Assembly (NCBI GenBank): GCA_039621445.1
Contig: CP154954.1
Span: 30,074,395-30,138,394 of the forward strand
Origin: Euglena gracilis
Taxonomy: Eukaryota
DNA: 64,000 nt
Reading direction: 5' to 3'
Shown: positions 326 to 38,811 of the stretch, in pieces
Layout: each line of letters opens with the position of its first letter
How positions within the stretch are numbered: position 1 is the stretch's first letter
Program-made: the position numbers and the translations under genes
The notes under the pieces: generated by a model
Told to the model about the DNA's origin: nothing
Seen by the model: the letters and a program-made list of their open reading frames with translations, nothing else
The model's database searches: none

Positions 326-676
326 TTAGGACCCATTTACACCGTAGCCCCGCCTGAACACATTGTGCGCTCTGGATTTTTGGCCCCGATGGGTTTGGTT
401 ACAATGGCCTGCTGGTTGTTGTCTCTTCCCCTTACGGGGTCGTCTGACCACTGCCAGGTCCGTGCACCACTTTGGTGGGTTTGTTTGGTTGTGGAAATTT
501 CTTTTGATGAAGGGGCAGCCACAGTTTGCCACAGTCGACCGGTGTCATCAGGTTTTCCAGCCGCAGCTGCTCCCTCTTGAAAGTCTCTGGCGCTGTTCGT
601 CTTGGAAATTGCATCTTTCAGATACCTCAGCAAGTTTTTGCACGAGCATCTGTTTTTGAATAATTCGAATTGATTG
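326..676 (-). pseudogene. Probable 5' (gag-like) fragment of another DIRS copy
   Basis: Weak peptide similarity (KREQLRLENL vs KKRQLENLEM) and the same composition as the 5' regions of the other DIRS copies. Confidence 0.35.
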
Positions 677-1030
677 TCGGACTCCCACGACACAGGAAGG
701 GGGAGGAAGTGACCATGAGGGCGAAGCACAAGAAGATGGTGAGCCCAACCCCCCCACCCAAAAAATCAGCAAAAAAGGAAAAACATCCCGACCAGTGGGG
801 TACGATCAACAGACAATGCAGGTCTGGGTTTACAATTAATCTCTGAACCCACTGGGGAATGATGCTCCAGGGGGGGTTTGCATAAACTGGGGGGAGATCC
901 CTCAAGTCTGCCCTTAAGGCATCCACCAGCAAAGCCCCTTGGGGGGTATCGACAAACGACCTTGGGGAATTTTTTGTTGCTGGGTGTGCAAAACATGTCC
1001 ACCTCTGGGGTTATGTCCTTTCTGAGAAAT
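627..1030 (-). pseudogene. Dam-like N6-adenine methyltransferase domain of the DIRS pol, frameshifted
   Basis: ITPEVDMFCTPSNKKF ... DALRADL ... VYANPPWSII ... LLIVPHW, split across ORFs 766-1314 and 627-932. NPPW is the amino-methyltransferase catalytic motif. Confidence 0.8.
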
Positions 1031-3826
1031 TGCAGACTTTGTGAAAGATGTTTAGGTTTAGGGTATAATCCCCTGGGTCCTTTTGCTCCCTGGTTAGGGA
1101 GTCTGCCAATTGCTCCTTTGTTGGAACCCAAACCACCTGCAAGTTGATTTGCTTCTCCTGGCAATGATACAGCAGGGGTTTTAAGATAGATTGAGGTAGG
1201 GCCTTTGCCTCCCCACTTTGTGAAATAACTTACAGCCACCTGGCTGTCCACATGAAGCACAATTGTTTGCTTTGGCTTGGCCAGTGCTTTTACAGTTTCC
1301 ACTGCAGCCTGCAACTCTTTTTGGTTGAATTAAGGAGATGCAGGTTCCCCCAACAATCCTGTACCTTTTTACCTGAATCTTTGTCCAGCCCCCCCCATTT
1401 CCAGGTGCTGCTGTCTGAAAAGAGTTCCTGAGAGGCCTGGGATTGAAATGCCCTGCCAAACCCTGGCTGTAAAAATGTTTTCAACTCCACAATTTGATCT
1501 TTGACCCCCTGGGGAATTATCAGGGTGTGGTCCCAACCCCACTTGGTGTGCAAATCCACCATTTTGCAAAGTTGATCTGTCAGAATTCTGAGAAATGGCA
1601 TGGAGACTAAAAAGCTTCTGACCTGCCCAACAATAGAACTGAGTTTTTTTGCAGCTCATTTTTTGTGCTGTGAGCACCTTCCCTAGCTGCTTTCTTAAGG
1701 ATTTTAATTTTTCCTGAGGAATTTCCAGTTGGCATTTTTTCAAATTGATACACTGGCCCAAATGCCTTATTTCCTGTGTGGATTCCAAACAGGATTTGGG
1801 AAGGTTTAATCTGAACCCTGCCAGTAAAAGGTCCTGTTTTATTTCTGCCAAATGCTGGGCTGCTGTCTTTTTGCTGGGGGTAACAGCAAAATGTCGTCCA
1901 GGTCGATGAAAACTACCTTTCCCTCCTTTCTCCATTTCCTTTCCCAGACTCTCATGAGAGTCATAAATTTTTGTGGAATCCTGCTGATGCCAAAGCATGC
2001 AGCTTGAAACTGCCAGTCCCCCCCCCCCACTTGCATGCAAACATATTTTTCTAAGCTGCTGTGCAGCTTTAGGTGAAAATAAGCATCTTTCAGATCAATT
2101 TTCCCACAAAAACAACCTTTTCTTAAATATGGGAAGATATTTCCCATGTGTTCTAGTCTGACCTTCTGGGCGGTGAAGTGGAGATTTACCTGTCGACAAT
2201 CTGAAATTAGTATTTCCTTTGTCTTTTCCCCTTCCTTTTTGGAAATTATAAAATAAGGGGCAAAATTTGTTGCCTCCTCTGGGGTGATTTGCCTGGTTGC
2301 CCCTGCACAATCGTATTCTCTCAGAACGTTCTGGGCAGTCATTACTTCTTGAGGAGTTTTGAAGGGAACTTTTAAGGACATCTGAGGGGGGAGGGGAAGA
2401 TCTGCTATAACCCCCTCCCTTATCAGGTTTAATACCACTCTGCTGGCTCCTACCTTGGCCCAAAGGGGAATGCTGGCCTGCAGGGCCTTGTAAGGGGGCA
2501 CCCCTGGGTGTAATGTGTCTGGGGATTCCATAAGGCCCATCACTGGGGTCCTTCCCCCTGGCTGCCCCATCACCGGGGCCACCTCTGGCTGCCCCATCAC
2601 TGGGGCTACAGCTGGCCCTGCCATAGGGCTTCCCAAACACAGGCATTCCCCCAGTTTTCGAATGATGGGGGAAGGTCTGTGTCTGCGGTGGGGAGGTACA
2701 TATAATGCTGGGCTGATTATCTTCTGGGGGGGCCTGTCTGAGCCAATCTTGGTCCTCCACCCCAAGGCCTGTGTGGATGGTCTTGAATGCATTGGCCTGT
2801 ATTGGCTTTTAGGGCCATGTGGCCCCCACTGGCCCTCAGGCCTGTCTGGTCTCCATTGGCCCTCTCTCGACGACTTCTCTGCGCTTTTCTCTGTCCCCTG
2901 TCCTGGCATGGGCTTGCTGCCCCTGGGGAGTTTGTTTTTGAGGATGCTGGGGGAAAGTTGGACATACCTTTCCCCAGTGGGATCTTTCCAGATTGGGATG
3001 CTGGCTGCCATAGCCTTGCCCCTGTGCCCACTGCCCTCTTGAATGATGGCTGCCATAGCCTAAAATCTGGGCCCCAGGCCCTGTTGAATAATGGCTGCCA
3101 TAGCCTTAATTTTGACTTGAATCCCTTGGATTTCTGATATTTCTTGAAAGGCTGCCATAGCCCTTGCCTAGTCCTCTGGAAGGAGGGGAGCAGAAAAAAG
3201 GAGGTGGAGTCTGTTGAACCCGTGGTGATATGTCTTCTTGCCTTCTTGACCACATTTGTCCATGGTCCATGGCCATCATCATTTTGAGTGGGGGATTTTG
3301 AAATGTTTGATGAATTGGGGGGTGGAAGGGTTGCGATGGCCACGGACTGATGTGCCGCCGCCGCCTCTCCAGCTTCTGCAGCAGCTGCTGTGCCACCACC
3401 TTTCCCAGCTTCTGCTGCCCTTTGGGAAGTTCGTTGAAGTTCTTCTTGGCAGTCTGAAGTTCTTTGAAATTCATTCTTCATGGAAGTCCAGTTGTTGATC
3501 TTTGTCCTAGCAGTCGCAATACTTCTGTGAATAATTCGAGTTGAACTCGAAGAGTTGAATTCTTTCTCCAGGGAGTTGAAGGTCCGAAAAAAGTTCGTTC
3601 CACCAGTTGATAAAAGCTTCGTGAATGGAAAATCCTCGTAAAATAATTCCAGTTGACCTCGTGGGAGTAAAAATCTTTCTCTTTGAGGTCGACGGGCAGA
3701 GTTAGGAATCAGCCTCCGGCAACAAAAAGCAGTGAGAAGCACCCCCCGCGCACACACAAACACAGAACAGAATGGCCGGCATGGAAAGCAGGACCTCACC
3801 ATCTCGCAGTGCGGAGCCCGAATGTC
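678..3826 (-). mobile_element. Decayed DIRS1-like retrotransposon (gag-like, RT, RNase H, methyltransferase; YR missing)
   Basis: Frameshifted minus-strand ORFs carry RT motifs (KIDLKDAYFHL in 1839-3056; FIDLDDILL in 1369-2040), RNase H (SDSSTWKWGG, HVDSQV) and MT (DMFCTPSNKK, YANPPW). Its 5' end at about 3826 (gacattcgggctccgcact) resembles the left end of the intact DIRS at 4131. Positions 678-745 resemble the ICR/right-extension sequence. Confidence 0.85.
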
Positions 3827-3974
3827 CGCTTTCCCGTCCAATTTACAAGGTATTTGATGCTCCTGTATTTCGGGTGTCGAAAGAAAAGTTATGTGTCAGC
3901 CCACGAGAAAGGCCGTTCTTTCCTGCCTTGGCTCGGGATTTGTTGAACAAGCCATCAGCGACTGAGTTCAAAAT

Positions 3975-4029
3975 TTAGCCGCTTCAAGCCGGATCATATC
4001 CAGCACATTCTTCTGGGGGGGAAACAGGG
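3975..4029 (+). pseudogene. Left piece of a decayed DIRS RT split by the LTR element
   Basis: ggatcatatccagcacatt matches 5843-5861 (LDHIQHIF) of the intact RT, and the homology resumes at 17921. Confidence 0.8.
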
Positions 4030-4128
4030 TGTTAACGCGGGACGCCCACCCCGTGTCCGCCCCCCCGAGGGGGAACCCGGGATGGGCCTCCGGCGGCGTA
4101 GGATCTTTATTCCCCACCTCAGTTTCAG

Positions 4129-4257
4129 GAGACACCTCGGGCTCCGCACTTTGCCCTTGTGAGGCCATGCCTTGCTCGCCGGCGGTGTTGTTTGGATTGT
4201 TTGCTGCGTTGGGTTAGGAGTCCCTGCTTAGTGCCTTTCTTCGCCGGAGTTGGCTGA
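4129..4257 (+). repeat. DIRS left terminus: left extension (4129-4154) plus left ITR (4155-4257)
   Basis: 4155-4257 is the reverse complement of 8578-8678 apart from one small internal difference. 4129-4168 is complementary to the first half of the ICR. Confidence 0.92.
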
Positions 4258-4411
4258 TTCCTAATCTTGCCCTTCGACACGGAAGAAGACAGAAACTTTC
4301 AAAGAACAGAGTTGGAAGAGATCAAAAGAACACAATATCAATATTCAGAACCTGTAGAACCTGCAGAATATCAAATTCAAGAAATTATTTCAACTTTGAC
4401 ATTGGAAGTCA

Positions 4412-7066
4412 ATGCAGAATGTGGAGAACGAATTGGAATTATCAAGTCGACAACCTGGACAAAGTGCAGAACAAGAAGCGCCAGCTGGAGAACTTGGAGA
4501 TGCGGTTTCAACGTGGCGAACCGTGGCCATCACTTCCCCACCACACATCTCAGCAGAACAAATTTTTCAGCAGCAGACAACCACACACAGTGATGGCCAT
4601 GGACCCTGGCAAACAGTGGGCAAAAAGCCCAGGCGACAACGAAAGACATTGGGTACCCAGGGTCAAGACCCATCACATTTCAAATTGGGGTTCAAGAAAC
4701 CTGCAAGATTGGCAGGCCCAGCCCAGAGACCAAAAGCCCCAGCCCACAGGGCAAATGTCCCCAACCTATCAAGATGGAATCAGGGACAAGGGGGCCAGTC
4801 AAACATTGGGAAGCCAGCAAATGGCCCAGCAGGAAGGGGCAAAAAAGGTCTGTACCGACCAGCTTTTTCAAATTCAGCCCACAACCCCATTCCAGGGGGG
4901 AAGGGGGTGGCCCAGCAACAGGGCTCCCCCAGATTTCAATTGGGCATGGCAAGAAGCCAGAACTTACAGCCCCGGCCATGGAGGCCAGAACAAAGGGGGC
5001 TTGGGCCAAGATGGCCAATACAAGGGCTATGGCAGCCATACAAGGGGTGGACCTCCAGAGGCCCCCCAGAAGCTAAAGGGCAGCCCCCCAGGGGCTTTGT
5101 ATTTAACAAATGCCCAGCCCCAGGAGGAACAGGGGGAAGGGGAAGGACCCCCACAAGTATTTATTCATCAACCTTCAAATCTCCCAGTGAAATCAAGAAG
5201 GGGGGGACCCACAGAGGCCCCCCTATGGTATGGCTACCAACACCATCATCATCAAGGAGGCCTGATAGGCAAAACAGGGGCATTAAGCCCTATGGTATGC
5301 ATTCCAACAACAAGATGCTCCAGAGAGAGAGTGAGAAGAGAGGAGAGTGCATGCACACCCCCCCAAGAACATTTGCTTTTTCCAAGGGCTCAAGCCCTAG
5401 GGGCTATAGGGGCTGTGAAATGTCCAACACCCCCCACCCAGCCCCTAAACAATCATCTGATTCAGGAAATAAATTCCATGGAGGAAAAATGGGGAGATAC
5501 CCCCCTGTACCAGAGACTTCAGAAAAGTCTAAAATGGTGGTCAAAAAATGCCCCCCCAGCAACATGTCAATTAATCAAAAATGGAATTCAACCCCCCTGG
5601 GTAAATCCCCCAAAATTGTCCACACACCCAAAACCCAGGGCCAATCTGGACCTGAACCAGGCAGAAAAAATTCTGCTGGATTACGAAAAAACTGGGTCAA
5701 TAAAACGAGTTTGGGATTCAGAATCCCAACATTTAATCCCATGGTTTCTAATTTCGAAACCAGAGGGGGGAACAACAAAATGGAGAATGATCAGCGACTG
5801 CAGAGAAATAAATCAGCAGTTTCAAGTAAAACCTTTCAGGCTGGATCATATCCAGCACATTTTCCCAGTTTTGGAAAAAGGCCACTGGGCAGCAAAAATA
5901 GACCTGAAGGATGCCTATTTCCATATTCCATTAAGTCCAGGCCTAAGGCCATTTTTAAGGACTCAGGTAGGGGGGCAGACCTGGGAATTTCAAACAGGCT
6001 GCTTTGGGCTAAATGTAATGCCCCAAATTTTCATGTCAGTAATGAAGACATTCGAAAAACTGTGGAGAAAAAGGGGCATCCAGGTCTTTATTTACCTGGA
6101 CGACATTTTACTGGTGGCCCCCACCCAAAACATTTTGCAAAATCACCTGAACAGAGTTGTCAAAGATTTGCTGGATTCTGGGTTCAAAATCAATGTGAAA
6201 AAGTCTACCCTGCAGCCCACCCAAGTGGTAACCCACCTGGGTCTTCAACTGAACTTCCAGGAAGGAAAGTTACAAGTGCCCCCCCAGAAAGTCAAAACTA
6301 TAAAAAAGGAGCTGGGAAAAATCGTGAAAAAAGATTACATGTCAAAAAGGCAGTTGGCTGCCATTTTGGGTCAAATAAGATGCAATCTAATGGCCCTGCC
6401 CTTTTTAAGGGCTTTTACAGACACCCTGGCAAATTTTTTGGTGGCAAAGTCCACAGCCCCCTGGGACTCAAAACACCCCATTTCCCAGGAAATCAAGGCC
6501 CAATTAAGGGAAATAAAAACTCTATTGGACACCTGGGGGGGCAGACCCTTCACCCAAAATGCAACCAGAGAGTTGCACTCAGACAGCAGCACCCATGCCT
6601 GGGGGGGGCTGGACATCCACACAGGAGAAATTGTGCAGGAATTTTGGAGAAAAGACTCCATTTTACACATCAATGTAAAGGAGCTCAGTGCAGCTATAAA
6701 CACTGTGAAAAGTTTGAGCAAACCTGGAGAAACAGTTTCTTTGTCTGTGGACAACCAGGTAATCTACTATTACCTAACAAAAGGTGGGGGCAGAAAAGAC
6801 CCCTTCAACAAAATGCTAAGACCATTTTTCAAATGGTGCATGGAGCACCAAGTAAACCTCCAAGTCAACTGGGTGCCTTCAAAGGAATGCCTAGCAGACC
6901 CCATAAGCAGATGGGAAATGGACAGGGGGGATTATTCTTTAGACCCCCAACTTTTTCAATGGTTGAGACAGCAATTCCAAAATTTCATAAATCTGGAAAC
7001 AGATTTAGCAGGCAACAAAAAACTCCAAGTCATGGGAGACAGCACAGCAGTAAATGCATACAATGA
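4412..7066 (+). CDS. 884-codon ORF overlapping the RT ORF in another frame, possibly the N-terminal extension of YR
   Basis: No stop codon over 2.65 kb in the second frame. Long overlapping ORFs are typical of DIRS elements. Confidence 0.5.
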   Translation: MQNVENELELSSRQPGQSAEQEAPAGELGDAVSTWRTVAITSPPHISAEQIFQQQTTTHSDGHGPWQTVGKKPRRQRKTLGTQGQDPSHFKLGFKKPARLAGPAQRPKAPAHRANVPNLSRWNQGQGGQSNIGKPANGPAGRGKKGLYRPAFSNSAHNPIPGGKGVAQQQGSPRFQLGMARSQNLQPRPWRPEQRGLGPRWPIQGLWQPYKGWTSRGPPEAKGQPPRGFVFNKCPAPGGTGGRGRTPTSIYSSTFKSPSEIKKGGTHRGPPMVWLPTPSSSRRPDRQNRGIKPYGMHSNNKMLQRESEKRGECMHTPPRTFAFSKGSSPRGYRGCEMSNTPHPAPKQSSDSGNKFHGGKMGRYPPVPETSEKSKMVVKKCPPSNMSINQKWNSTPLGKSPKIVHTPKTQGQSGPEPGRKNSAGLRKNWVNKTSLGFRIPTFNPMVSNFETRGGNNKMENDQRLQRNKSAVSSKTFQAGSYPAHFPSFGKRPLGSKNRPEGCLFPYSIKSRPKAIFKDSGRGADLGISNRLLWAKCNAPNFHVSNEDIRKTVEKKGHPGLYLPGRHFTGGPHPKHFAKSPEQSCQRFAGFWVQNQCEKVYPAAHPSGNPPGSSTELPGRKVTSAPPESQNYKKGAGKNREKRLHVKKAVGCHFGSNKMQSNGPALFKGFYRHPGKFFGGKVHSPLGLKTPHFPGNQGPIKGNKNSIGHLGGQTLHPKCNQRVALRQQHPCLGGAGHPHRRNCAGILEKRLHFTHQCKGAQCSYKHCEKFEQTWRNSFFVCGQPGNLLLPNKRWGQKRPLQQNAKTIFQMVHGAPSKPPSQLGAFKGMPSRPHKQMGNGQGGLFFRPPTFSMVETAIPKFHKSGNRFSRQQKTPSHGRQHSSKCIQ

Positions 7067-7133
7067 CTGGAAAAACAGGGGGATCTTTATGACCCCCCCC
7101 AACAAAAAATTTGCCCAGGTTGAAAATGTTTAA
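4419..7133 (+). CDS. DIRS gag-like/RT/RNase H polyprotein with an eroded methyltransferase tail
   Basis: KWRMISDCR, KIDLKDAYFHIP, CFGLNVMP, YLDD (RT); SDSSTHAWGG, HINVKEL, VDNQV, ADPISR (RNase H). The true start is uncertain. Confidence 0.95.
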   Translation: MWRTNWNYQVDNLDKVQNKKRQLENLEMRFQRGEPWPSLPHHTSQQNKFFSSRQPHTVMAMDPGKQWAKSPGDNERHWVPRVKTHHISNWGSRNLQDWQAQPRDQKPQPTGQMSPTYQDGIRDKGASQTLGSQQMAQQEGAKKVCTDQLFQIQPTTPFQGGRGWPSNRAPPDFNWAWQEARTYSPGHGGQNKGGLGQDGQYKGYGSHTRGGPPEAPQKLKGSPPGALYLTNAQPQEEQGEGEGPPQVFIHQPSNLPVKSRRGGPTEAPLWYGYQHHHHQGGLIGKTGALSPMVCIPTTRCSRERVRREESACTPPQEHLLFPRAQALGAIGAVKCPTPPTQPLNNHLIQEINSMEEKWGDTPLYQRLQKSLKWWSKNAPPATCQLIKNGIQPPWVNPPKLSTHPKPRANLDLNQAEKILLDYEKTGSIKRVWDSESQHLIPWFLISKPEGGTTKWRMISDCREINQQFQVKPFRLDHIQHIFPVLEKGHWAAKIDLKDAYFHIPLSPGLRPFLRTQVGGQTWEFQTGCFGLNVMPQIFMSVMKTFEKLWRKRGIQVFIYLDDILLVAPTQNILQNHLNRVVKDLLDSGFKINVKKSTLQPTQVVTHLGLQLNFQEGKLQVPPQKVKTIKKELGKIVKKDYMSKRQLAAILGQIRCNLMALPFLRAFTDTLANFLVAKSTAPWDSKHPISQEIKAQLREIKTLLDTWGGRPFTQNATRELHSDSSTHAWGGLDIHTGEIVQEFWRKDSILHINVKELSAAINTVKSLSKPGETVSLSVDNQVIYYYLTKGGGRKDPFNKMLRPFFKWCMEHQVNLQVNWVPSKECLADPISRWEMDRGDYSLDPQLFQWLRQQFQNFINLETDLAGNKKLQVMGDSTAVNAYNDWKNRGIFMTPPNKKFAQVENV

Positions 7134-7338
7134 CCAATTTTGATCATACTGGACAGCACATGGTGGCCTTAAAAATGGTGCCGCACACCCACAGATGATG
7201 CAGATGACCCCTGGCCCCACTTGCAGTCCACAAATCACAAATTCATAAAACCTGTTTCCTGGGGCAGAAAAACAATGTTTTGATTGGTCCCCCCCTACTT
7301 TTCAATATGGGCCCCAATTTAAAAAAGTCCCAGACCAA

Positions 7339-8619
7339 ATGCCTGAAAATCACCCCCCAAGGGGGGTGGCCCACCAAATGAAATACAAAAAATACCCCCC
7401 CAGGTGGCTATTTCACCCCCAGGGGAACTCCACAATGGGGGGGAAGCAAAAAATTTTAAAAATTGAAGATTTCCTGGGGAGAAACCCCAGTTTAAAACGT
7501 TATCAGAGTGCTTTTGCACTTCTGTGGGTAATTTTGGAACACATGGGGGTGCCCCCCCCTGAAGCCACCACTGACCAAGTGGCTGACGCTTTAATACAAT
7601 TATTCCAATTTTCAAAGGCCCAAGCCCGTAATGCATACAGTGCAATGCTTTTGATTCCTGGGTTTGGTGGACTGAGATTCCACACCCTATTAACCCCCTA
7701 CAAGAGGCTTTGGAACCAAAATCTGGAGAAGTATGGGGCATTTTGGGATCCCCTCCCAATCCTCCTGGGGCTGGCCAAGGCCCCTATGCCCACTGATATT
7801 TGTACATTGCGTACCCAGCTGATTTTTTGCTCACGAGTTCTCTGTTTATATCGATCCTCTGACTTGGCACAAGTCAAACGAACCACCAGTGTGTTGGGTA
7901 GGGCACCCTACATCAAAATTAAGCGTAAAGGGCAAAAATTTCACAAGTGGGAGAGGGTTGTGTCCATACCCCAGTGTCCCCAAATAAGCCCATTTCATTT
8001 AATGATGTGTTATGTGGCTGCCACACGTTTATTCGTCAAACCTGGGGGCCCCCTCCTAATTTCATTAAAACCCCCCTTCAGAGCCATAAGTGCAGACACT
8101 GTTGCTTCTATCACAAAAGATTTTTTGGCCAAACATGGGGTGACTCCCCAGGTGTGGGGGGCCCACTCCACCAGAGGGGCAGGAGTTGGTTTACTGAAAA
8201 AATTGGGCCTTTCTGCCCAAGAAGTTTGTGAAATTGGCCAGTGGAGGGGGGTGGAGGCTTTTACAGCCCATTATCAACGACTGGGTGCCCAAGGTGCCCT
8301 GGAAAATGCCCTGGCCCCCCTAATTTCCGTGCACAATCTGGCCTCACAAGGGCAAAGTGCGGAGCCCGAGGTGTCTCGTACTCCCTCGAGGAAAACCGAC
8401 AAGGGAGGAAGGGACACCGAGGGCGAAGCACAAAGACCTTGTGAGCCCGACCCCCCCACCCGTAAAAGAAAATTTGTCTTCAAAAGCCCTCGGTCAGAGA
8501 GTGGGGGCCAGGGGGGGGAGAGGGGGGGGACCCCCCCCAAGGGCAAGAAGTCACGTCGCCAAGTCGGAGCAGCATCGTCAGCCAACTCCGGCGAGGCGGC
8601 ACTAAGCAGGGACTCCTAA
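7339..8619 (+). CDS. Tyrosine recombinase (DIRS YR)
   Basis: Catalytic residues in order: LYRSSDL (R), HSTR (HxxR), GQW, FTAHY (Y). Confidence 0.93.
   Translation: MPENHPPRGVAHQMKYKKYPPRWLFHPQGNSTMGGKQKILKIEDFLGRNPSLKRYQSAFALLWVILEHMGVPPPEATTDQVADALIQLFQFSKAQARNAYSAMLLIPGFGGLRFHTLLTPYKRLWNQNLEKYGAFWDPLPILLGLAKAPMPTDICTLRTQLIFCSRVLCLYRSSDLAQVKRTTSVLGRAPYIKIKRKGQKFHKWERVVSIPQCPQISPFHLMMCYVAATRLFVKPGGPLLISLKPPFRAISADTVASITKDFLAKHGVTPQVWGAHSTRGAGVGLLKKLGLSAQEVCEIGQWRGVEAFTAHYQRLGAQGALENALAPLISVHNLASQGQSAEPEVSRTPSRKTDKGGRDTEGEAQRPCEPDPPTRKRKFVFKSPRSESGGQGGERGGTPPKGKKSRRQVGAASSANSGEAALSRDS
8339..8445 (+). repeat. DIRS internal complementary region (ICR)
   Basis: It is the reverse complement of the right end joined to the left end through a single TCTC (8374-8377, i.e. 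GAGA). Confidence 0.95.
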
Positions 8620-8741
8620 CCCAACGCAGCAAACAATCCAAACAACACCGCCGGCGAGCAAGGCATGGCCTCACAAGGTCTTTGTGCTTCGCCCTCGGTG
8701 TCCCTTCCTCCCTTGTCGGTTTTCCTCGAGGGAGTACGAGA
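8578..8741 (+). repeat. DIRS right ITR (8578-8678) plus right extension (8679-8741)
   Basis: The ITR pairs with the left ITR. The extension pairs with the second half of the ICR. Confidence 0.92.
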
Positions 8742-9961
8742 TCCAACATAGACTCGATTCCCTTCGGGCTTCATGCATACCCCCCCTTGCATATCCCCAA
8801 ACATACCTGGGTCACTATCCTTTGCACCCTCGCCCTTTCTCGGTCTTGGGCCGCTTGCCACTCCCTTGCTTGTGCAACGTAAGGGGGCGGGGCCCCATAC
8901 CCCCCCCTTCCCCGGCTCCAACCCTTGCCTCTCCACATCTGAAAAAGAGGACATTTTCAGTAAAATTTTCAGTAAAATTGACTGAAAATCCTTGCGCTTT
9001 CCAAATTCTATATCCCCTTTTTTCCTTTGTAAAAAATTAGGCACAATACCTTGGGGGAGGGGACGGACGAAAGGTTCAAGGTTCGAGGTGGTGTTCGGTC
9101 TTCCCCTTAGGCAAACTTCAACTTCCGCTTTGTCGATTGTCTTGTCTTGACCAATGACAATGACTTTGACCAATGACAATGAATCAAACTCGCAGCCAAT
9201 AATGAATCAAACTCAGCCAATGGTGAATCAAACTCAGCCAAATAGATAAACAAAAACAATGGTAAATGGGAAACCCACTGTGGGAAAGAAATCAAAGGAA
9301 CACCACTTGCCATCAATGGGGGGAAAAAATCCTTTTTTTCTCCAACCACCTTCCAATCCATGGGGAGATGCCCAATGCACTTCTGCCACTCTCCCCCCTC
9401 TCCAAATGCATTCCTTCACCTTCCTACATTTGGACCTTGGAATTGGAAGTCAAAATTAAGGATACCCCACTGGTTAGGAAAGGAGCCCATCCAGACGCGC
9501 TTCGCATCCCCAGGGCCTTCTCCATTCCCAACCTTCCCCCCACCACCCCCCACGTTCTCTTCCATCCCCTACGAACTCAATGAATCCATCCACACACACT
9601 ATGGGCAACAACATGACATCTGCCTCCCTCATCCTCACCCAAGGGATAATCCCACACACTTCACGCCATTAGGGCTTGGGGGCAACAAGGGCCTCCTCCC
9701 AGGCCTTCATGGACTCCACCCGTGCCCCCCCCCCCCCGGACGCCCTTCCCTCAGGCGCTCGACGGGAACAACTCCTGGTGATCCAACCCACATTCACGCC
9801 AGGCAAACCTTCCCTTGGCATACAACCCAACAGGTCAAGCTGTCCAGGGGAAGAACAACAACAAAAACATACCACAGTACGCAAAGCGTCGCCGGCGAGT
9901 ATCTTTCCCCATCAATGGGGCCGCACTCCGGGCGCATGTGGGTTTCTCGGACCCCCCAACA

Positions 9962-9972
9962 CCCCCCTACTC
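9962..9972 (-). promoter_or_regulatory. Polypurine tract
   Basis: GAGTAGGGGGG immediately precedes the 3' LTR on the minus strand. Confidence 0.8.
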
Positions 9973-10414
9973 AAAAAGTTTCTCCCAGAAACTTCAACCC
10001 TTCACCGACCAAAGGGAGGCGGGGTCCGGAAACCCATACCATCGATACTCCTCACTCCCTCACCAACCGGCAAAAGGGGAAAAAAATTTTTTTTTTTTTG
10101 TTGACCGGCCTCACCCGTCGGCCAACACTCCAAACCCTTGCCACCCTTCACCCAGGTCACCCGTTCGCCTCGGCCTCACCCAACGAAGCCCGGGCGAAAA
10201 CCAGGGTACTCTTCAAGTATCCGGTCAGCAGCAGCAGCCCGGTCCGCGGCGGCCGCTCGGTCTACGGCCGCGGCTCTGTCCACGGCGGCCGGCCGGTCCA
10301 CCTCCTCCACCAATAGGTGGCACCGCTTGCACACGATCCAGGTTATACACCTGCCACCAACACGGCAAGGATGGATTTGCCGGGGCTCGGGGCGCATTTC
10401 CCCATCGAGGAAAC

Positions 10415-10800
10415 GCCCCCCCCCCCCGGGGCACTCAGGGGCATACACCGTGCCCCCCCCTTCCCCGGAGGTGAAAAATGTGTTCCCCCCAGGGGTGAAA
10501 ATCCTGCCTCCCCCCCCCTCCTCGGGGGCACGGGGGCAAACTCCCCCCCAAGGGGCGAAAATTCTGCCCCCCCTCCCCCGGGGGCACATTTCCCCCCGGA
10601 GACAAAAATCCTGCCCCCCCCCGGGGGCACATTTCCCCCCAGAGACAAAAATCCTGCCCCCCCCCCATCAGGGGGCGCAGGGGCATGCTCTCCCAAGGGG
10701 CGAAAATCCTACCCCCCCCCTTCAGGGGGCATAGGGGTACATTTCCCCCCGGGGCCAAAAATCCTGCCCCCCCCCCAGGGGGCTCCGGAGTTTTTTTTTT
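10415..10800. repeat. GC-homopolymer tandem repeat (aaaatcctgccccccc units) in the gypsy 3' region
   Basis: About six imperfect units. Confidence 0.75.
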
Positions 10801-10845
10801 TCTTTTTGAAGGGGGCAAATGATCATGACCCCCCCCCCCGGGGGA

Positions 10846-11680
10846 TCACTCCTCCACCTCGGGGGAATTGGACGGGAAATCATGGGTTCGGGCAACTGAT
10901 TCGAACACTTGGGGGATGTCCAAAACCAGTCCCTTCTCTTGGCAATACGCGAGCCAGGGGTCGGGACAGCCACGCAGAAAACTGTCCGATGGCTCCCATG
11001 CCTCAAAAACTTGCCCCCCGGTTGTCCACCGAGTCAAAAACTCAAACCCGTGGACCGGGTGAGGGCGATGGTCCAACACCCGATCGACCACGGGCACCAC
11101 CAGCCGTTGGTCGACAGGATTGGAACCACGGAACACAAGCGGGTATGACTCTCCTAAATCCATGTCCCACAGGCAAGGCTTGAGTTGGTCCCTATGAACA
11201 TCATACAACACGCTTTGTTCCGTACGGACCTGATAACTCGCCGCCCCCACCCGTTGCACCACCTGGAAAGGGCCCCTCCACCACCTCTCAATTTTTCGTC
11301 CTCCCACCTTCTTGGGATACAACAACCAAACCCAAGACCCATCCTCGAATAGGGCCTTCGGTTTCCTCTTGTTGTTGACCCGATCCTGAATTTTTTGGTG
11401 TGCTTCATGCAGGGCACCCGCCACCTTCCGATCGACGGCCTCCATGCGACCCAAAAAATTACCCACCTCCTCACACTCCCGCACCGGTTGCCAAGGGATC
11501 CCCGCCAGGCTCCTCTCCCGACCAAAAACCAACTCGTAGGGGGTGACACCGAAATCCCCCACCGCGTCATGCTGCCACCTCAAGGCCCGTGGGAGGGCCT
11601 CGACCCAATTTATCCCCTCCGCACAATGCATTTTGCGCAATGCGAGTTGCAAAATGCGACCGCACACTTCGGCCCTTCCT
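10846..11680 (-). CDS. Gypsy integrase C-terminal part plus chromodomain (5'-truncated)
   Basis: GRAE...NWVEALPRAL...TPYELVFGR...WRGPFQV...VHRDQLKP, then VDRVLDHR...EFLTRW...AWEP. Homology starts abruptly near 11680. Confidence 0.9.
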
Positions 11681-14594
11681 TTTGGTGGGGGATTTGCTCT
11701 CGGGTCTCCGTTGAGAAGGTGCCTGCACCACGACTGCTTTGGTCTCCAACGGTTTGGGGTTCGCCCTTGCGTCCCCCGGATGGGTCTCCAAACCAAATGC
11801 CCGGCGGGTGATTTCCAGCTCCTCTTCCGTCCGAAGACGGGCAGCCACAAATTCAAAAATGTCATCACTCGACAATTCATACTCGTGTCGAGTGAAGTTC
11901 ACCCTGGCCCCATCCATGGTTGCCCCGTGCCACGCCAAGAGCTTTTCCCGCCAAGCCTCAGTGGGAGTCTCGATCACGTATCCTGACGAACATTCGTGCA
12001 CCGGTGGCAGTGATTCCCCAAGGTGGGCTTGAATTTCTGCCAAAACAGCTGGCCCGTTCACCCTCGTTGGAAACGTGACCCTGATCCACGGACGGCTGAC
12101 CCGCCGTCTTGCGGTCTCCCGCATGAGATCTTCCTGGAGTGAAGGCGACATTTGTGTGAACAACATTTTTCGCTCCTCACCGGCGCTACGTTCTGGAACT
12201 TCCTCCCTTGATAATTTGAATTCTGCCTCGTACCTGCGCCAGTCTTGTAAAGTCGCCCCCCCCCTTGGGTCCTGTCCTGCTCAACCTCACGCTTTCCCAA
12301 CTCTGCCTGTGCTGCTTCAAGGAATCAATCCCGAATTCCCTCCGGAGTTCTTGGCGGAAACCCGCCAACGTGAGACCCGCATCCTGCTTCATGCGCAATC
12401 TCAACTTTGCCTGAGTTGCCTCATCGAGGCAACTTTTGAACTCCTGCAACAACACGAAATCTGATGGGGGAAGTGGAGAAGTCTCGGCAACAACCCGCTC
12501 GAGCTCCTCCCATTCCCCCTCAAACTTGGCAAAATCTTTGGCCAACCCTGAAAACCGCGGACGCGGCATCCGCCGCCACACATCTGAATTGATGGGATGG
12601 GTCTGAAAAAATGGGAATTGGTTCGCTGGGGCTGCCCCCGTCACACCCACCCGTGCCGTACGCCCAGGGTCATCATGCTGGCTGCATTGATTTGCATGGG
12701 ACCCCACAAAACTGGAATTTTCAGCGTAATTCCCGGGGGGTGCACCACCAGACCAAGCACAGAATCCTCGACCCCCAGCACCTGGCAGAATGAGTTTGGG
12801 TCGGGCGATCTCACTCTCTCCGTCCGAAACATGGCTGCCAATCACAGAGGGAGGGGGTAACAACCTCCTACCCCCCCGCAGAAACTCCTGGCCCACTGGG
12901 GGGACAGAATTCACGGTTGGCAGATCCCTGCGCGGAATCCCCACAGACGCTGTTTGCCCCAAAGCAACCTCCCTTTCCTGTCGGAATCTCTGGGCCATTT
13001 CATCCACATAGCCCTGAGTTCGCAGGTCCACAGCCTGGCGAGCTGCCTCCCCAGGATCCGCCTCCCCAACCCCCAGGGGAGTCGGTTCCCTCACTGCCCC
13101 TCCTGGGGAGATCGACTCAACGATCCCCCCCATTGGACTTGGCTGGGCAAATCCCCTTTGGGTCCCGAGCGGGGACTCCCCCCCAAACCCCACTGGCTGC
13201 ATCACTGGGGGCGGCTGACGAATCGCAGGCACACCGCTCGCTTGAGCCTGCAGGTTGGGCTGGGCGGTGACGGGGGTCCTCGTCTCCCCAACTGTCATCA
13301 TTCCGCCCACGTTTCCGCACCTCCCAGCTCCTGCGACAGGGACTGAGGGAAGGCGGCTTTGCAGATGCGCATCGACTTGGGCATGCACATCCCGTAACCA
13401 CCCTTCCACTCGCTCCCGGATCTGCCCACTCTCCACGGCAAGCAGATTTTGCAGAATTTCTCTCTGCCCATCTGCTGCTGGCTGTGCGTGCACCCACCCC
13501 TGCAGCTGCTGAACCTCGGATCTGATTTCGGCCAATGCTGGGGTCAACCCCCCCTGGTCCTCCCCCCCTCTTGGCCGAGACCGAACCCACTCTTCCAAAG
13601 CCTGCACTCGCTTTTCCACTGCGTTGCTGAGTCCGCTCTGGGCCTCCCTTAACTCAGCACAAATCGAACTGACCTGTTGAAATTGTGCGGAAAATCTGGC
13701 AAACATGGCTTCCTTTTCTGCCTCAAATTCTGCCCGCATTTGGCCTTCGGCCAAACGGTGCCCCTCCAAAATGGCAGCGATTTTCCTCTCGTGCCCAGCC
13801 TCACTCGCTGCCAATTCTGCCTGATGTCGTGCGCATACGCTGGCCAATTGCTGCGTGAAATCGGCGCGCTGGCTGCCCACCCCCTGTAGTTTGCCATCAA
13901 TTTCACTGTGAATCCTAGCAATTTCTGAAATAACGTCGTTTCGCAAATTGTGAATCTGGTTGCCCAACCCCTCGCTGGCCGCACGTAAAAATTGCAGCCC
14001 CTGCCCCGTTTGCCCCTCCACTGCCTGCATCGCCGACAATCCCTGAGACACCTCCAGGGAGTGGCTGGCTTGCGCCTCTGCCTGTTGCCATAAAGCCTCC
14101 ACGGACTGCCCCAACATATGCAAGAATGGCATCATGGCCCCCACCTGATCTTGCATAGTCCCATAATTTTGCTCCAATTGCAAAATCCTGGGGCCAATGA
14201 TTTGCACCGCCCCCCTCGCCACCATCACAGCAGCTCTGGCTGCTGCTGCATGGGTGATCCATTCAATGCCCGACCCTGTCCAAGACCCGTCCCACTCGGG
14301 GGGATCTCGTGGGTTTCCCAAACCCCCCATGGGTCCACAGGACTGGGCCACTGACACTGAATTACTGGGCACAACCAACACACCACCAGGGGGGGGTTGG
14401 GTCTCCTCATCGACATCCACTGGGTCCCCCCTGCTGGCAGTGATCATACCTATGCTTTTCACCGGGTTCCAACCAAAAAAACTGACTGGGACTGCTGGCT
14501 CGTCATCAATTCCGTAGAGAAATTGCAGCCGGATCACTGCCAATTCAGCGGGATCTGGCTCCCAGTCATCATCATAACCATGGGCATTCATCAC
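11680..14594 (-). CDS. Gag-like protein (ORFs 12186-14594 and 11567-12166, one frameshift)
   Basis: Long ORF in the gag position with a coiled-coil region and a capsid-like segment (RPRFSGLAKDFAKFEGEWEE). Confidence 0.65.
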
Positions 14595-15869
14595 GGCAAT
14601 TTATGGGCTCCTCTGACCCAAAAACTGCTGGCTGGTTGACTGGGCTGGCTGTTGCATCATGGGCTGGGCTGGCTCTTGCATCATGGGCTGGGCTGGCTCC
14701 GTGATGGGCTGGGCTGGCTCTTGCATCATGGGCTGGGCTGGCCCCATGATGGGCTGCGCTCACTCTAGAAACATGGGCTGGGCTGACCCCATGATGGGCT
14801 GGGCTGGCTCTTGCATCATGGGCTGGGCTGGCTCCATAATGGGCTGGGTTGGCTCTTGCATGACGGGCTGGACTGACTCCATGATGGGCTGGGCTGACTC
14901 TTGCATCATGGGCTGGGCTGGCCCCATGATGGGCTGGGCTGGGTCTTGCATCATGGGCTGGGCTGACTCCATGATGGGCTGGGCTGGCTCTCGCATCATG
15001 GGCTGGGCTGGCCCCATGATGGCCTGGGCTGGCTCTTGCATCATGGGCTGGGCTGGCCCCATGATGGCCTGGGCTGGGTCTTGCATCATGGGCTGGGCTG
15101 ACTCCATGATGGGCTGGGCTGGCTCTCGCATCATGGGCTGGGCTGGCCCCATGATGGCCTGGGCTGGCTCTCGCATCATGGGCTGGGCTGGCCCCATGAT
15201 GGGCTGGGCTGGCTCTTGCATCATGGGCTGGGCTGGCCCCATGATGGGCTGGGCTGGCTCTCGCATCATGGGCTGGGCTGGCCCCATGATGGGCTGGGCT
15301 GGCTCTTGCATCATGGGCTGGGCTGGTTCTTGCATCATGAGCTGGGCTGGCTGCATGATGTGCTGGGCTGGCTCGGCTGGCTCTTGCATCACGGGCTGGG
15401 CTGGCTCTTGCATCATTGACTGGGCTGGCTCCATGATGGGCTGGGCTGGCTGGGCTGGCCCTGGCACTGCAATTTCTGGGCTCCTCTGACTCAAAAACTG
15501 CTGGCTGGTTGACTGGGCCGGCTCCTGCATGATGGGCTGGGCTGGCCCGTACATGATTGGCTGGGACACTGCAATTTCTGGGCTCCTCTGACCCAAAAAC
15601 TGCTGGCCAATTGACTGGGTCGGCCCCTGCATGATGGGCTGGGCTGGCCCGTGCGTAATTGGCTGGGGCACTGCAATTTCTGGGCTTCTCTGACCCAAAA
15701 ACTGCTGGCCGGTTGACTGGGCTGGTCCTGCGTTTGGCTGGTGCTGGGCTGGCCCCCCGACTGCTGGCTGGGGCTGGGCTGCCCCCTCGACGGCTGGCTG
15801 TGGCTGGGCTGGCCCTGCGTTTAGCAATGCAATTCCCAATTGAAATTGCAAACGGGCTTCAACTCCCAA
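14595..15869 (-). repeat. Coding-like tandem repeat (21/24-bp units, PAQP(I/M)M(G/QE))
   Basis: Dozens of gggctgggctggc...catcat units. The 369-aa ORF 14760-15869 reads through them. Confidence 0.9.
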
Positions 15870-16586
15870 ACTCTCGTGGGAAAAAAACTTGCTGACTCAT
15901 TTCTGCTGGCTGTGGCTGGCACTGAGCTGGCGTTGGGCTGGGCTGTGCAATTCCACTCATAAATTGCGACTCAGCCCCCCTAATTTCCAGACCCCCTGGG
16001 ACTGAAAATTGTTGAACACCAGCGTCACACCTTGCCACTTCGTCGTCTTGCTTGCTGGGCTTCTGGTCCCGTCGGCCTTCCTCGTTCAATTGATAATATT
16101 TCGGTCCGCTGCCAATTGAACTTGTGGCCTCCAGGCCAGGGCTTCGGTCCTCGAGGCCCTCTCGCAGCACCTGAGGTATAGACGCCTGCAAAAAACTAGA
16201 ATTCTTTTCAGATTGGTTGGGGGGCAACAGAAAACTTTCATGGTGACCCAGAATGTTGTGATCAGCAAAAAACACCTGGGGTTCCGTCTGGAAACCCCCT
16301 TGGATCTCCCTGAATTGCAATGTCGGCGACATTACAAACCAACACCACCCGGCTGCTGTCTTCAAACCCATCATCGCAACCATCACCGCAACCGGTTCCA
16401 GAATTGTTGGTGTCTGAAAATTTGTCTTTGCGAAACTCAGGGCAAAACAAATACAGACAAAATCACTCACTGACAATCCAACCTGAAAACTGATTGCAGC
16501 TTTCGCCCCTCTGATTACCATGTTTACGCTGGGAAACATGGAATTTGAAACAGCTGAAAAACACCAAACAGCAACCGCAGCACAAA

Positions 16587-16598
16587 CCTCTGCGACCA
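16587..16598 (-). promoter_or_regulatory. Primer-binding site (tRNA-iMet-like)
   Basis: TGGTCGCAGAGG directly abuts the 5' LTR. TGG pairs with the tRNA CCA end. It is one mismatch from the animal iMet PBS TGGTAGCAGAGG. Confidence 0.75.
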
Positions 16599-17920
16599 TG
16601 TTAACGCGGGACGCCCACCCCGTGTCCGCCCCCCCGAGGGGGAACCCGGGATGGGCCTCCGGCGGCGTAGGATCTTTATTCCCCACCTCAGTTTCAGGAG
16701 ATCCAACATAGACTCGATTCCCTTCGGGCTTCATGCATACCCCCCCTTGCATATCCCCAAACATACCTGGGTCACTATCCTTTGCACCCTCGCCCTTTCT
16801 CGGTCTTGGGCCGCTTGCCACTCCCTTGCTTGTGCAACGTAAGGGGGCGGGGCCCCATACCCCCCCCTTCCCCGGCTCCAACCCTTGCCTCTCCACATCT
16901 GAAAAAGAGGACATTTTCAGTAAAATTTTCAGTAAAATTGACTGAAAATCCTTGCGCTTTCCAAATTCTATATCCCCTTTTTTCCTTTGTAAAAAATTAG
17001 GCACAATACCTTGGGGGAGGGGACGGACGAAAGGTTCAAGGTTCGAGGTGGTGTTCGGTCTTCCCCTTAGGCAAACTTCAACTTCCGCTTTGTCGATTGT
17101 CTTGTCTTGACCAATGACAATGACTTTGACCAATGACAATGAATCAAACTCGCAGCCAATAATGAATCAAACTCAGCCAATGGTGAATCAAACTCAGCCA
17201 AATAGATAAACAAAAACAATGGTAAATGGGAAACCCACTGTGGGAAAGAAATCAAAGGAACACCACTTGCCATCAATGGGGGGAAAAAATCCTTTTTTTC
17301 TCCAACCACCTTCCAATCCATGGGGAGATGCCCAATGCACTTCTGCCACTCTCCCCCCTCTCCAAATGCATTCCTTCACCTTCCTACATTTGGACCTTGG
17401 AATTGGAAGTCAAAATTAAGGATACCCCACTGGTTAGGAAAGGAGCCCATCCAGACGCGCTTCGCATCCCCTAGGGCCTTCTCCCTTCCCAACCTTCCCC
17501 CCACCACCCCCCACGTTCTCTTCCATCCCCTACGAACTCAATGAATCCATCCACACACACTATGGGCAACAACATGACATCTGCCTCCCTCATCCTCACC
17601 CAAGGGATAATCCCACACACTTCACGCCATTAGGGCTTGGGGGCAACAAGGGCCTCCTCCCAGGCCTTCATGGACTCCACCCGTGCCCCCCCCCCCGGAC
17701 GCCCTTCCCTCAGGCGCTCGACGGGAACAACTCCTGGTGATCCAACCCACATTCACGCCAGGCAAACCTTCCCTTGGCATACAACCCAACAGGTCAAGCT
17801 GTCCAGGGGAAGAACAACAACAAAAACATACCACAGTACGCAAAGCGTCGCCGGCGAGTATCTTTCCCCATCAATGGGGCCGCACTCCGGGCGCATGTGG
17901 GTTTCTCGGACCCCCCAACA
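16599..17920 (-). repeat. 5' LTR, uninterrupted (1322 bp)
   Basis: Reads tgttaacgcggg...ggaccccccaaca. Contains three tandem aatgaatcaaactc(a/g) units. Confidence 0.95.
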
Positions 17921-19070
17921 AGGGCGGCAAAAATTGACCCAAAGGGGCAGAATTTCCAGCACTGCTTTGGGCCAAACGCAACGCCCTAAATTTTCATGTA
18001 AGTGATGAAGACGTTTCTCGGGATCTCGGGAAAAGAACGAGCGTTCAGGGGTTTATTTATCTGTGAGACATTTTGCTGGTAGCCCCCACCCAAAACATTT
18101 GCAACATCACCTGAACACAGTCGTCAGAGATCTTACTAAAATCAGGGTTCAAAATCAATGTGAAAAGTCCACCCTGCAGCCCACCCAAATGGCAAACCAT
18201 CTGGGTTTTCCACTGAACTTCCAAGAAGGAAAGTTAAAGGTGCCCCCTAGAAAGTCAGAACCATAAAAAAGGAGCTGGGAAAAATTGTAAAACATTTTGT
18301 GTCAAATAAAGTGCAATCAAATGTCCCTGCCGCTTTTAAAGCTTTTTACGGATGCCCTGGCAAATTTTCTGGTGGCAAAATACACAGCCACCTGGGACTC
18401 AAAACACCCCATTTCTCAGGAAATCAAGGCCCAATTGTGGGGGGACATACCCTTCCCCCAAAATGCAACCAGAGAATTTCACTCAGACAGCAGCACCCCC
18501 TGGGGCTGGACATCCACACAGGAGAAATTGTGCGGGAATTTCGGAGAAAAGACTCCATATTTTGCACATGAATGCAAAAGAGCTTGGAGCACCAAATAAA
18601 CCTCCAGGTCAACTTGGTACCTTCAAAAGAACGCCTGGCAGACCCCATGAGCAGATGGGAAATGGACAGGGGGGATTACTCTTTAGACCCCCAACATTTT
18701 TCTTCCTTTAGACCCCCAACTTTTTCAATGCTAAGGGAGCATTTGAAAAAATTCATGCAGTTGGAGCAGACATATTTGCCTCCCCAGGCAACAAAAAACT
18801 GCCCAGTTTTGTGGATATGTGGCCCCACTGGGAGGCCACAGCCACAGCAGTGAACGCGTTACAATGTCCACTGGACAACATGGGCGATCTTTATGCAAAC
18901 CCCCCGGTCAATTATTCAATAATTTCCCCCCAGGTTGAAAAATTTTCCCCAGACCAAAATTCTGAAGGGCACCCCTAACTGGGATTCAGCCACTTGGTGG
19001 CCCCAATTAATGAAAATGAAAGTTCCAAAGACTCCTCAGAAGGAATTATTTGGCCCATGTCGCACAGTCG
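17921..19070 (+). pseudogene. Right piece of the decayed DIRS RT-RNaseH-MT
   Basis: Colinear with 5887-7180 with many indels: FTDALANFLVAK, LADPMSRWEMDRGDYSLDP, DIFASPGNKKLP, LYANPP, ATWWPQL. Confidence 0.92.
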
Positions 19071-36476: not shown

Positions 36477-36681
36477 TCACCCCTCATCATCCCATGCGTT
36501 GGGGAGGGGGCTTTCCCCCTCCATAGAGCGCTGACCCTCCTGTTTCGTTGGGCTCAGCAGCTCCCCGGGTCGCCAGCAGTTGGGGAGCGCAGCAGGAAGT
36601 GACAGACGGACTGGACACTGCAGAAATGCCAAAAACAGTAAAATGCAGGACACACGCACACACACGCACACACACGCACAC

Positions 36682-36729
<48 letters not shown>

Positions 36730-36771
36730 AGCACACCTCACACACACACACGCACACACACACACACACAA

Positions 36772-36804
<33 letters not shown>

Positions 36805-38690
36805 CGCGCGCGCACACACAGAGAGACGCATGCACGCACCCCCCACACCACCCACTCATCCATCCAACCCCCACCCACCGGGGGGGGGGGGGTAATGCAA
36901 CATGGACCCTCGAAAAAGCACCGCAAAACGCAAAAAACAACACATTTTGCCTTCAACAGCTCCCCCATATCCCCCTAGAATTTTTTCACCTCCTCGGGGG
37001 ATCTTCTTCATTATGCAACTATATTTTGACTCATTTTTTTTGATCAGATGGAGAATACTGATTCTAAAAACTTGTTGGTCAAAAAATTACAAGTGACAAA
37101 AAGTTGTGCAAAGAGTGAATCCCAAAAAAGACAAAAAAGGCCAAAACATATTTTTTTTTTAAAATCAAAAATAATCCTCCACCCCAAAAAATGCAACATG
37201 GATCCTCGACGCGACGGAATTTTTTTTTGCAAAACAGTTATGTGTTTTGTGTTTAAAAACAAACACAAAACAGAAATAAACACAAATTATTGCAAAAAAA
37301 AACACGCAAGTTGCATGAAAATTCCCTCAAGAGCTCCCCCAGGATGTGCACCTTCTGCTGGAGAGGACAAAAATATTTTACCTTCCTCGAAGAATTTTTT
37401 TCATTCTGCACATTACCTGATAATAACAATGCAGCATGTTGCATATTTCAGACAATCTTTCGAATTTTCCCCACCAAACACAGAAGCAACAAAAAAAAAC
37501 AGTGAAAATGAATTTTATTGCATAAAAATGCAAATTAAGCAAATTTTCAAGAATTTGGTTCTTGTTTATGTGTATTATTTTGGCTAAAAATTTGTTCCCC
37601 CCCCCCCCCCCCCCCTTGTCGTACGACCGGGTTCCTGCAACCTGTGACCAGGGGGGATGGTCGTAACACCCCCATAACCTGCAACCTGTGACTGGGGGGT
37701 GGTCATAAATGCGGGGGCGGTCGTAGGTTAAAGTGGTGTTAAATTTTTCGCAACCTGCAACATGTGACCGGGGGGTGGTCATAACACCCCCATGACCTGC
37801 AACCTGTGACCGGGGGTCGTAAATGAGGGGTGGTCGTACGACAAGGGGGGGGCGGGTAAGATGCTGATTCAATAAATATACACATTCTTTGGCCAAAAAA
37901 TCCAAAACGACAATAAATCCACAAAAATTTTGGTCTCTGGGGAAAACGAGGTCCAAAAAAAAAGCAGAAGAGAAGCAGCAGAATAATAGCAGAAGGTTGT
38001 TTTCCCGTCCAAACAAATTCCCAGCAGAAATCAAAACATCATCGGGAAAGAAACCCGCAAAAACCCCCGCAAAATAAGCCACCCCAAAAAAGCTCTCCCT
38101 CCACTGTCCCCCCCCCCCCTGCGCCTACCTGTCAACCAGTTAAGAATCCTCCGACAGGTCCAGCTCAGAAGTTAGAAAATTTGGGCTGGTTGGAAAAAGG
38201 CTGCTGGCTGACCACCCCCTCTGCCCATAGGGGTCCCATGGCTGGAACTTGGCCTGAGCTGGGGTCAAATTGGTACCAAAATATCAAAACTTCAAAAATA
38301 CCCCAAAACTGCCAATTATGCAAAAATCGATTTTTGACCAAAGAATGCTCTGGCCAGAACGTTCTTGGTCCATCTTTAAAAGCGAAAATTGGACCGCCAT
38401 CCAATCTGAGGGCTGCTGCAAAATAATTAAAACTCCAGGATGAAGGGGGGGTCTGGGGATGGAAAAAAAAGGTGGCTTGCTGGACTCCCCCAGGGGGATG
38501 GGGTCCACTTCTGCTTACATGGCGTCCTGCCACCCAGCCATCATCCACACACAACGCACACAATGCGCACACAACACACACACACACACACACACACATA
38601 CACACACTCTCACTCACTCACACACACACACACACACATAGACACACAACGCACACAACACACACACACGCGCGACTCACTCATTTGCAT

Positions 38691-38729
<39 letters not shown>

Positions 38730-38746
38730 TAACACACGCACACACA

Positions 38747-38802
<56 letters not shown>

Positions 38803-38811
38803 CACACACAC

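Follow-up and report, generated by a model that had tools for sequence, protein, structure and literature searches.

A 64,000-nucleotide stretch of the Euglena gracilis contig CP154954.1, referred to here as the window and numbered from its first letter, harbors a retroelement encoding a tyrosine recombinase, element Y, which interrupts one of two near-identical copies of a long terminal repeat (LTR). With a probability of about 0.8, Y is a recently inserted and probably still competent DIRS1-like retrotransposon that integrated by the standard DIRS1 scheme through a shared 4-bp core, GAGA. This mechanism is that of the published DIRS1-like model and is not a new one: a short motif at the junction of a circle recombines with an identical motif in the genome (PMC3266345, PMC7192593).

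The filled and the empty versions of the integration site are both present in the window. The left junction of Y reads tttcagGAGAcacc and the right junction agtacGAGAtccaac, each containing one GAGA, and the uninterrupted LTR reads tttcagGAGAtccaac at the corresponding place, with a single GAGA (Table 1). The junction, empty-site and internal strings quoted in the first-pass annotation were all found at their positions when 3900-9000 and 16300-17100 were read. Assertion checks established that 30 nt of each filled-site flank are those of the empty-site flanks. On either side of GAGA, donor and target have different bases (G/C at -1, T/C at +1), and the shared identity is therefore exactly 4 bp. 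In-silico removal of 4133-8741, that is the element and one GAGA, gives back the exact LTR sequence at this position. The excised copy (copy A) differs from the empty one (copy B) in 4 columns out of ~1322, corresponding to one substitution (9524/17485) and two short homopolymer-type indels, all more than 700 bp from the insertion site. As the LTR is intact around the site after excision, the insertion event was conservative. The insertion of Y is younger than the LTR-type element that hosts it, which is itself young.

The ends of Y are predicted by an internal sequence. Y possesses inverted terminal repeats (ITRs) of 103 nt with 96% identity (4155-4257 versus 8678-8578), beyond which the outer ends are non-identical (left, 22 nt; right, 59 nt). 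A bipartite internal complementary region (ICR) reads ...gcccgaggtgTCTCgtactccc..., in which TCTC occurs once, between perfect complements of both element ends. By blastn-short, 8339-8377 matches 4129-4167 perfectly as its reverse complement (39/39), as does 8374-8445 with 8670-8741 (72/72), so that the two ICR halves overlap on exactly TCTC, at 8374-8377. The stretch around this core is gaggtgTCTCgtactcc, and the predicted circle junction is its reverse complement, agtacGAGAcacc; 30 nt of each Y end are identical to this ICR-derived junction (assertion check). The perfection of both matches fits termini that have been freshly copied from the ICR. If the ICR spacer and the 4-mer found at both junctions were unrelated, the prior for their being equal would be 1/256.

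The coding capacity is present in Y. The long frame of 971 codons contains a reverse transcriptase (RT) at ~5754-6248 (residues 513-677), matched by PF00078 RVT_1 with an E-value of 6.7e-22 and displaying the YLDD motif. Its gag label is assigned by position and by eye, and its RNase H-like part by position and a DSS motif seen by eye, both without a Pfam call. Pfam identifies no rve/integrase domain in Y. The methyltransferase (MT)-like remnant that follows reads ..AVNAYNDW.. and DLYDPP, then a stop (7131-7133) and ILIILDSTWWP; by eye, the motifs of two neighboring DIRS-like copies are ..YANPPWSIIPQW..LLIVPHW (YANPPW) in copy C and ..DLYANPP.. in copy O. Long homopolymer runs (C8-C10, G8-G20) are frequent across the window, also within open reading frames (ORFs).

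The recombinase of Y has 71 database homologues, one of which bears a EukProt name starting with EG_transcript, which weakly hints at a euglenid. Across 24 aligned sequences, residues R141, K166, H245, R248, W271 and Y281 do not vary; the catalytic set R-K-H-R-W-Y is thus intact in Y, and the HSTR motif is present. PF00589 is called in 3 of the 24 aligned members, but not in the recombinase of the window itself. All top PDB structure matches of the AlphaFold (AF2) model (pLDDT 86.9) are Cre (probability 1.0, E 8.6e-7), with XerH, lambda Int and XerD next in rank, at a sequence identity of ~13-16%. A phmmer search against PDB returns only Cre, with an E-value of 0.5. The relatives, the invariant residues and motifs, and the predicted fold together assign this protein to the tyrosine recombinases, with a Cre-like predicted fold. 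With its ITRs, bipartite ICR, RT and this recombinase, the assignment of Y as a DIRS1-type retrotransposon is supported.

The recombinase frame continues through the ICR (Table 1), and the relatives can be compared there at the protein level. A pattern derived from the translated ICR is matched in 24 of the 71 relatives, of which one (P0052) was dropped by eye as spurious, leaving 23. Twelve of these 23 display AEPEVSRTP exactly as Y does. The codons spanning TCTC encode Ser-Arg in 17 of the 23, the others being S-S (two), S-H, T-R, L-Q and L-H (one each). These peptides are compatible with a GAGA core that would be conserved in much of the family and replaced by different cores in some branches.

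According to the DIRS1 scheme, a sub-genomic transcript of Y would be reverse-transcribed, and both ends would be rebuilt on the ICR, which offers in succession the left-end complement, TCTC and the right-end complement. This templating would generate a junction composed of the right end, GAGA and the left end, and strand exchange between this junction and a GAGA in the genome would then be carried out by the Cre-like recombinase. The intermediate would be a double-stranded circle, the joints would be made by the recombinase and not by host repair, the strands would be cut within or beside GAGA, and identity would be required at all four core bases. The first-pass annotation had proposed tyrosine-recombinase integration of a circular intermediate through a 4-bp core: the junction pattern is the expected one and the core is exactly 4 bp long, while the circle is what we infer.

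Several points weigh against this account. The recombinase of Y receives no Pfam call at E-values up to 5, and its family profile finds no match among PDB sequences at E-values up to 1. The MT-like region is interrupted, which makes full competence uncertain; the frame change, at a C run near 7090-7100, could be a sequencing error rather than a mutation. The integration of the Y family is read from one insertion, so the need for GAGA is a deduction from a single event. The LTR of 1322 bp has 10 GAGA/TCTC sites and the window as a whole 398, and the 4-mer alone therefore cannot explain the choice of site. Serine and arginine have six codons each, and a conserved peptide across the ICR does not determine the underlying bases. 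Well-studied tyrosine recombinases use an overlap of 6-8 bp, longer than the 4-bp identity at Y. Finally, the extrachromosomal cDNA of Dictyostelium discoideum DIRS-1 is reported to be predominantly single-stranded and linear, and attempts to amplify its circle junction by PCR were unsuccessful (PMC7192593). The circular step hence remains a model even for the type element.

This last observation favors a route without a circle, in which a linear cDNA with an ICR-templated GAGA at each end would be joined at the target GAGA, by 4-nt microhomology or at a 4-nt staggered break, through the recombinase or host repair. Such a route would give a product identical to the observed one. We consider it improbable. 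Between its two end complements the ICR has a single GAGA, an arrangement that corresponds to a joined junction, and Y encodes an intact Cre-like recombinase. Tyrosine recombinases exchange strands between two duplex sites, and when ends are joined by host repair, small deletions in the target or filler are the usual result; neither deletion nor filler is present at the insertion of Y.

Formally, a single GAGA at the empty site against two at the filled one has the signature of a 4-bp duplication, and GAGA could accordingly be an ordinary target-site duplication from a staggered cut, with the TCTC of the ICR a coincidence. This explanation is very unlikely: it has to accept the 1/256 chance of a match with the ICR spacer, it predicts ICR halves that abut without any spacer, and Y has a tyrosine recombinase only, without a DDE integrase. 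Moreover, no target duplication accompanies DIRS1-like elements, whose two ICRs overlap on a 3-bp circular junction (PMC3266345). Copy C displays GACA at both of its apparent ends, although its flanks are non-contiguous sequence: its right flank, below 675, is a minus-strand DIRS gag fragment (D), and its left flank has no gag-D-like homology (score 20 against a shuffle mean of 20.6) and contains an old plus-strand RT fragment. The repeated GACA would thereby weakly favor a motif carried by the element over a duplication. As for the filled/empty contrast being an assembly artefact, or a loss or gain of the element in the second LTR by gene conversion, the 99.7% identity of LTR copies ~12.5 kb apart and a nest of repeats prone to assembly error would make this conceivable, but it has very little chance of being correct, as the junctions are perfect to the base, the ICR gives an independent prediction of both ends and the core, which no mis-join would yield, and the nesting order described below is self-consistent.

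Returning to recombination through GAGA, the target has no detectable resemblance to the donor beyond the core. The flanks of donor and target share 7/30 and 7/30 positions, which is the chance level. The target scores 7 against the donor arms, the mean being 7.46, and 255 of 325 other GAGA sites in the window score at least as well. The statement of the first-pass annotation that there is no other target homology therefore holds. Two stretches of the target flanks, CACCTCAG and CTTCGGGCT, resemble the left end of Y; this likeness was attributed to chance, the target being below the average of the 325-site control.

Table 1. Features of element Y, of the interrupted LTR-type element and of the neighboring DIRS-like copies (window positions)
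Feature	Position	Strand	Basis
DIRS-like copy C, divergent subfamily, without recombinase or ICR; GACA at 3823-3826 and 675-678 (minus-strand reading)	675..3826	-	sequence; tblastn, RT 31-41% identity
Old degenerate DIRS-like copy O (RT/RNase H/MT-like), split by the LTR-type element	~3953-4029, 17925..19050	+	77% to Y in RT; BLAST, tblastn
AGGG, one copy of the 4-bp flanking duplication; the other at 17921-17924	4026..4029	.	sequence
First 103 bp of interrupted LTR copy A (TGTTAAC...)	4030..4132	-	self-BLAST, 100% to 16599-16701
Left junction GAGA, shared core copy 1	4129..4132	+	sequence reading, blastn-short, assertion check
Body of DIRS1-like element Y, 4605 bp (one GAGA included, 4609 bp)	4133..8737	+	bounded by break in LTR identity (self-BLAST)
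Terminus specific to the left end (22 nt), complementary to ICR left half	4133..4154	+	blastn-short, alignment
Left conserved ITR	4155..4257	+	aligns to reverse complement of 8578-8678
Open frame, 971 codons stop to stop: gag-like N-terminal part, RT, RNase H-like part	4218..7130	+	ORF list, Pfam
MT-like remnant, interrupted: frame change, in-frame TAA 7131-7133	6990..7250	+	three-frame translation versus copies C and O, by eye
Tyrosine recombinase ORF, 395 codons, ATG 7432, stop 8617-8619; C-terminal tail runs through ICR	7432..8619	+	homologues, invariant residues, Pfam on relatives, predicted fold
ICR left half, reverse complement of 4133-4167	8339..8373	+	blastn-short, 100%
TCTC, complement of GAGA core, overlap of ICR halves ("circular junction")	8374..8377	+	sequence, blastn-short
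ICR right half, reverse complement of 8670-8737	8378..8445	+	blastn-short, 100% over 68-72 nt
Right conserved ITR	8578..8678	+	blastn-short, alignment
Terminus specific to the right end (59 nt), made up of divergent ITR and right extension	8679..8737	+	self-BLAST, alignment
Right junction GAGA, shared core copy 2	8738..8741	+	sequence reading, blastn-short, assertion check
Rest of LTR copy A (...CCAACA)	8742..9961	-	self-BLAST, in-silico excision
Interior of LTR-type element, tandem repeats at ~14592-15755	9962..16598	-	Pfam scans, self-BLAST
Uninterrupted LTR copy B, 1322 bp, with empty-site GAGA 16698-16701	16599..17920	-	sequence, self-BLAST, in-silico excision

The repeat that received Y is part of a larger unit covering 4030-17920 and bordered by AGGG on both sides. 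Its LTRs have TG...CA ends, reading TGTTAAC...CCAACA, and self-BLAST of the window aligns 8738-9961 with 16698-17920 at 99.67%. On the minus strand, a stretch starting with TGG adjoins one LTR and a purine run, GAGTAGGGGG, adjoins the other (by eye), in the places where a PBS and a PPT would lie. The TG...CA repeats, the AGGG duplication, the TGG stretch and the purine run have the apparent layout of a minus-strand LTR retrotransposon. No retroelement Pfam domain, whether gag, protease, RT, RNase H or integrase, was found in 9962-16598 among minus-strand ORFs of at least 70 amino acids and four plus-strand ORFs, the sole hint being SH3_Tf2-1 with an E-value of 0.01, below the cut-off. The host repeat is most simply a non-autonomous LTR-type element. 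Its interior is GC-rich (~0.6), with minus-strand ORFs of 804, 428 and 435 codons, and the tandem repeat block listed in Table 1 has a period of ~100 bp. The order of events is internally consistent with three levels of nesting: the old DIRS copy O, then the LTR-type element with its AGGG duplication, then Y.

No second copy of the Y family was detected in the window by self-BLAST or tblastn, only the divergent copies C, O and D. Copy C contains RT, RNase H-like and MT-like parts; its termini align to those of Y, and its left boundary can be aligned in two ways and is thus ambiguous. In bacterial and archaeal genomes, a scan for the 26-nt ICR core gave 0 exact matches and a scan with a recombinase protein pattern gave 42 matches, none of them confirmed by tblastn, both of which say little given the genomes covered.

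The GACA of copy C and the non-S-R codons at the core of some relatives are compatible with a crossover programmed by the ICR spacer. That the 4-nt spacer would be the sole, template-encoded determinant of the crossover site of the recombinase is nevertheless a doubtful proposal; if true, a single base change in the ICR would retarget a whole lineage.

The ICR and the terminal junction of Y represent a single site present in opposite orientations and bordered by perfect inverted repeats of ~70 bp, and the segment between the two could thus be flipped. After the ICR, Y continues with cccgaccccccc...; this downstream sequence sits in reversed orientation just inside the right end of copy C (675-800), a stretch that scores 87 against the ICR of Y with its downstream sequence, 59 against the right terminus of Y, and 21 for the shuffle mean. 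Among the 18 relatives with an ORF extending past the ICR, six continue into a left-ITR-like peptide instead of the Y-type continuation (by eye). Flipping of the segment from the ICR to the end by the recombinase would explain both the reversed sequence in copy C and these six peptides. The cause of a flip could be the recombinase, homologous recombination, or graph ambiguity in short-read assemblies.

The remainder of the window contains probable host genes and other repeats. ORF fragments at 26569-28184 (minus strand) match a family X DNA polymerase (DNA_pol_B_palm, E 1.9e-10; DNA_pol_lambd_f and HHH_8 weakly) and probably belong to an intron-split host gene. The ORF at 45941-46522 (minus strand), with a match to ASTER (PAT complex subunit Asterix, E 9.3e-11), is another probable host gene. 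Four arrays of a common short repeat, mutually 75-93% identical, are spread over 30 kb (28318-28627, 36650-36858, 38546-38862 and 57631-57879). Two stretches of ~1.7 kb, 32663-34340 and 55220-57182, are 64-67% identical and are possibly old copies of another repeat family. A 117-bp direct repeat is perfect between 51971-52087 and 52252-52368. Neither Rfam families nor tRNAs were found in the window.

For DIRS recombinases, specificity is described as never tested experimentally (PMC3266345, PMC7192593), the short-motif model deriving from comparative sequence analysis (PMC7192593). Y supplies a natural, base-perfect triplet composed of the donor junction (ICR), the target (empty LTR) and the product (both junctions). 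Together with the apparently intact 395-codon Cre-like recombinase, this triplet is suited to a first direct test of that specificity. A 4-bp GAGA widens the known DIRS junction motifs beyond NTT, with an unchanged mechanism, and would not surprise a specialist.

Compared with the DIRS1-like elements, Y shares non-identical ITRs, a two-part ICR close to the 3' end with halves that have a short circular junction in common, a gag-RT-RNase H organization with what may be an MT-like region, and a tyrosine recombinase displaying the HSTR motif. The ends of Y carry the motif that complements its circular junction, and there is no target duplication beyond this motif. Its dimensions (22-nt end, ITR of ~103 nt, ICR halves of 35 and 68 nt) fit Table 3 of PMC3266345, and nesting among DIRS copies is also found for DIRS-1 (PMC7192593). 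The differences concern the junction, which is 4 bp long and all purine on one strand in Y as compared to 2-3 bp and mostly NTT in the published elements (PMC3266345), the MT-like domain, which is only an interrupted remnant in Y, and the host, which appears to lie outside the groups with intact DIRS1-like elements characterized in 2011. The classical DIRS1 motif, given as TTT in the first-pass annotation, is more precisely NTT, which begins and ends 23 of 28 annotated DIRS1-like elements, with ATT the commonest; Table 3 of the same paper lists TTA/TAA for D. discoideum DIRS1-2 and CGG for AmDIRS1, the one GC-rich exception that it names, and GAGA is indeed unlike the rows examined (PMC3266345). 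A partial literature search returned no report of a tetranucleotide or GAGA junction in DIRS elements, which does not allow it to be called unreported; the accessible part of a 2026 preprint on methyltransferases, found for Euglena and DIRS, contains nothing on junctions. The requirement of the ICR for retrotransposition is documented for D. discoideum DIRS-1 only (PMC7192593).

The predicted fold of the Y recombinase is closest to Cre, and the system resembles Cre/loxP, XerH and the lambda Int core in performing what would be a conservative site-specific exchange. As in Cre, the catalytic residues are spaced H-x-x-R, with W 23 residues further on, then Y. Unlike the Cre/loxP-type systems, with their 6-8 bp overlap, Y has a 4-bp core, its target lacks recognizable donor-like arms, and its donor site would be remade by reverse transcription at each cycle. 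In the PAT-like and Ngaro elements, too, a tyrosine recombinase accompanies an RT/RNase H, and a circular intermediate is presumed, but these elements harbor split direct repeats instead of ITRs and an ICR (PMC3266345, PMC7192593). Since Y possesses both ITRs and an ICR, it is neither PAT-like nor Ngaro.

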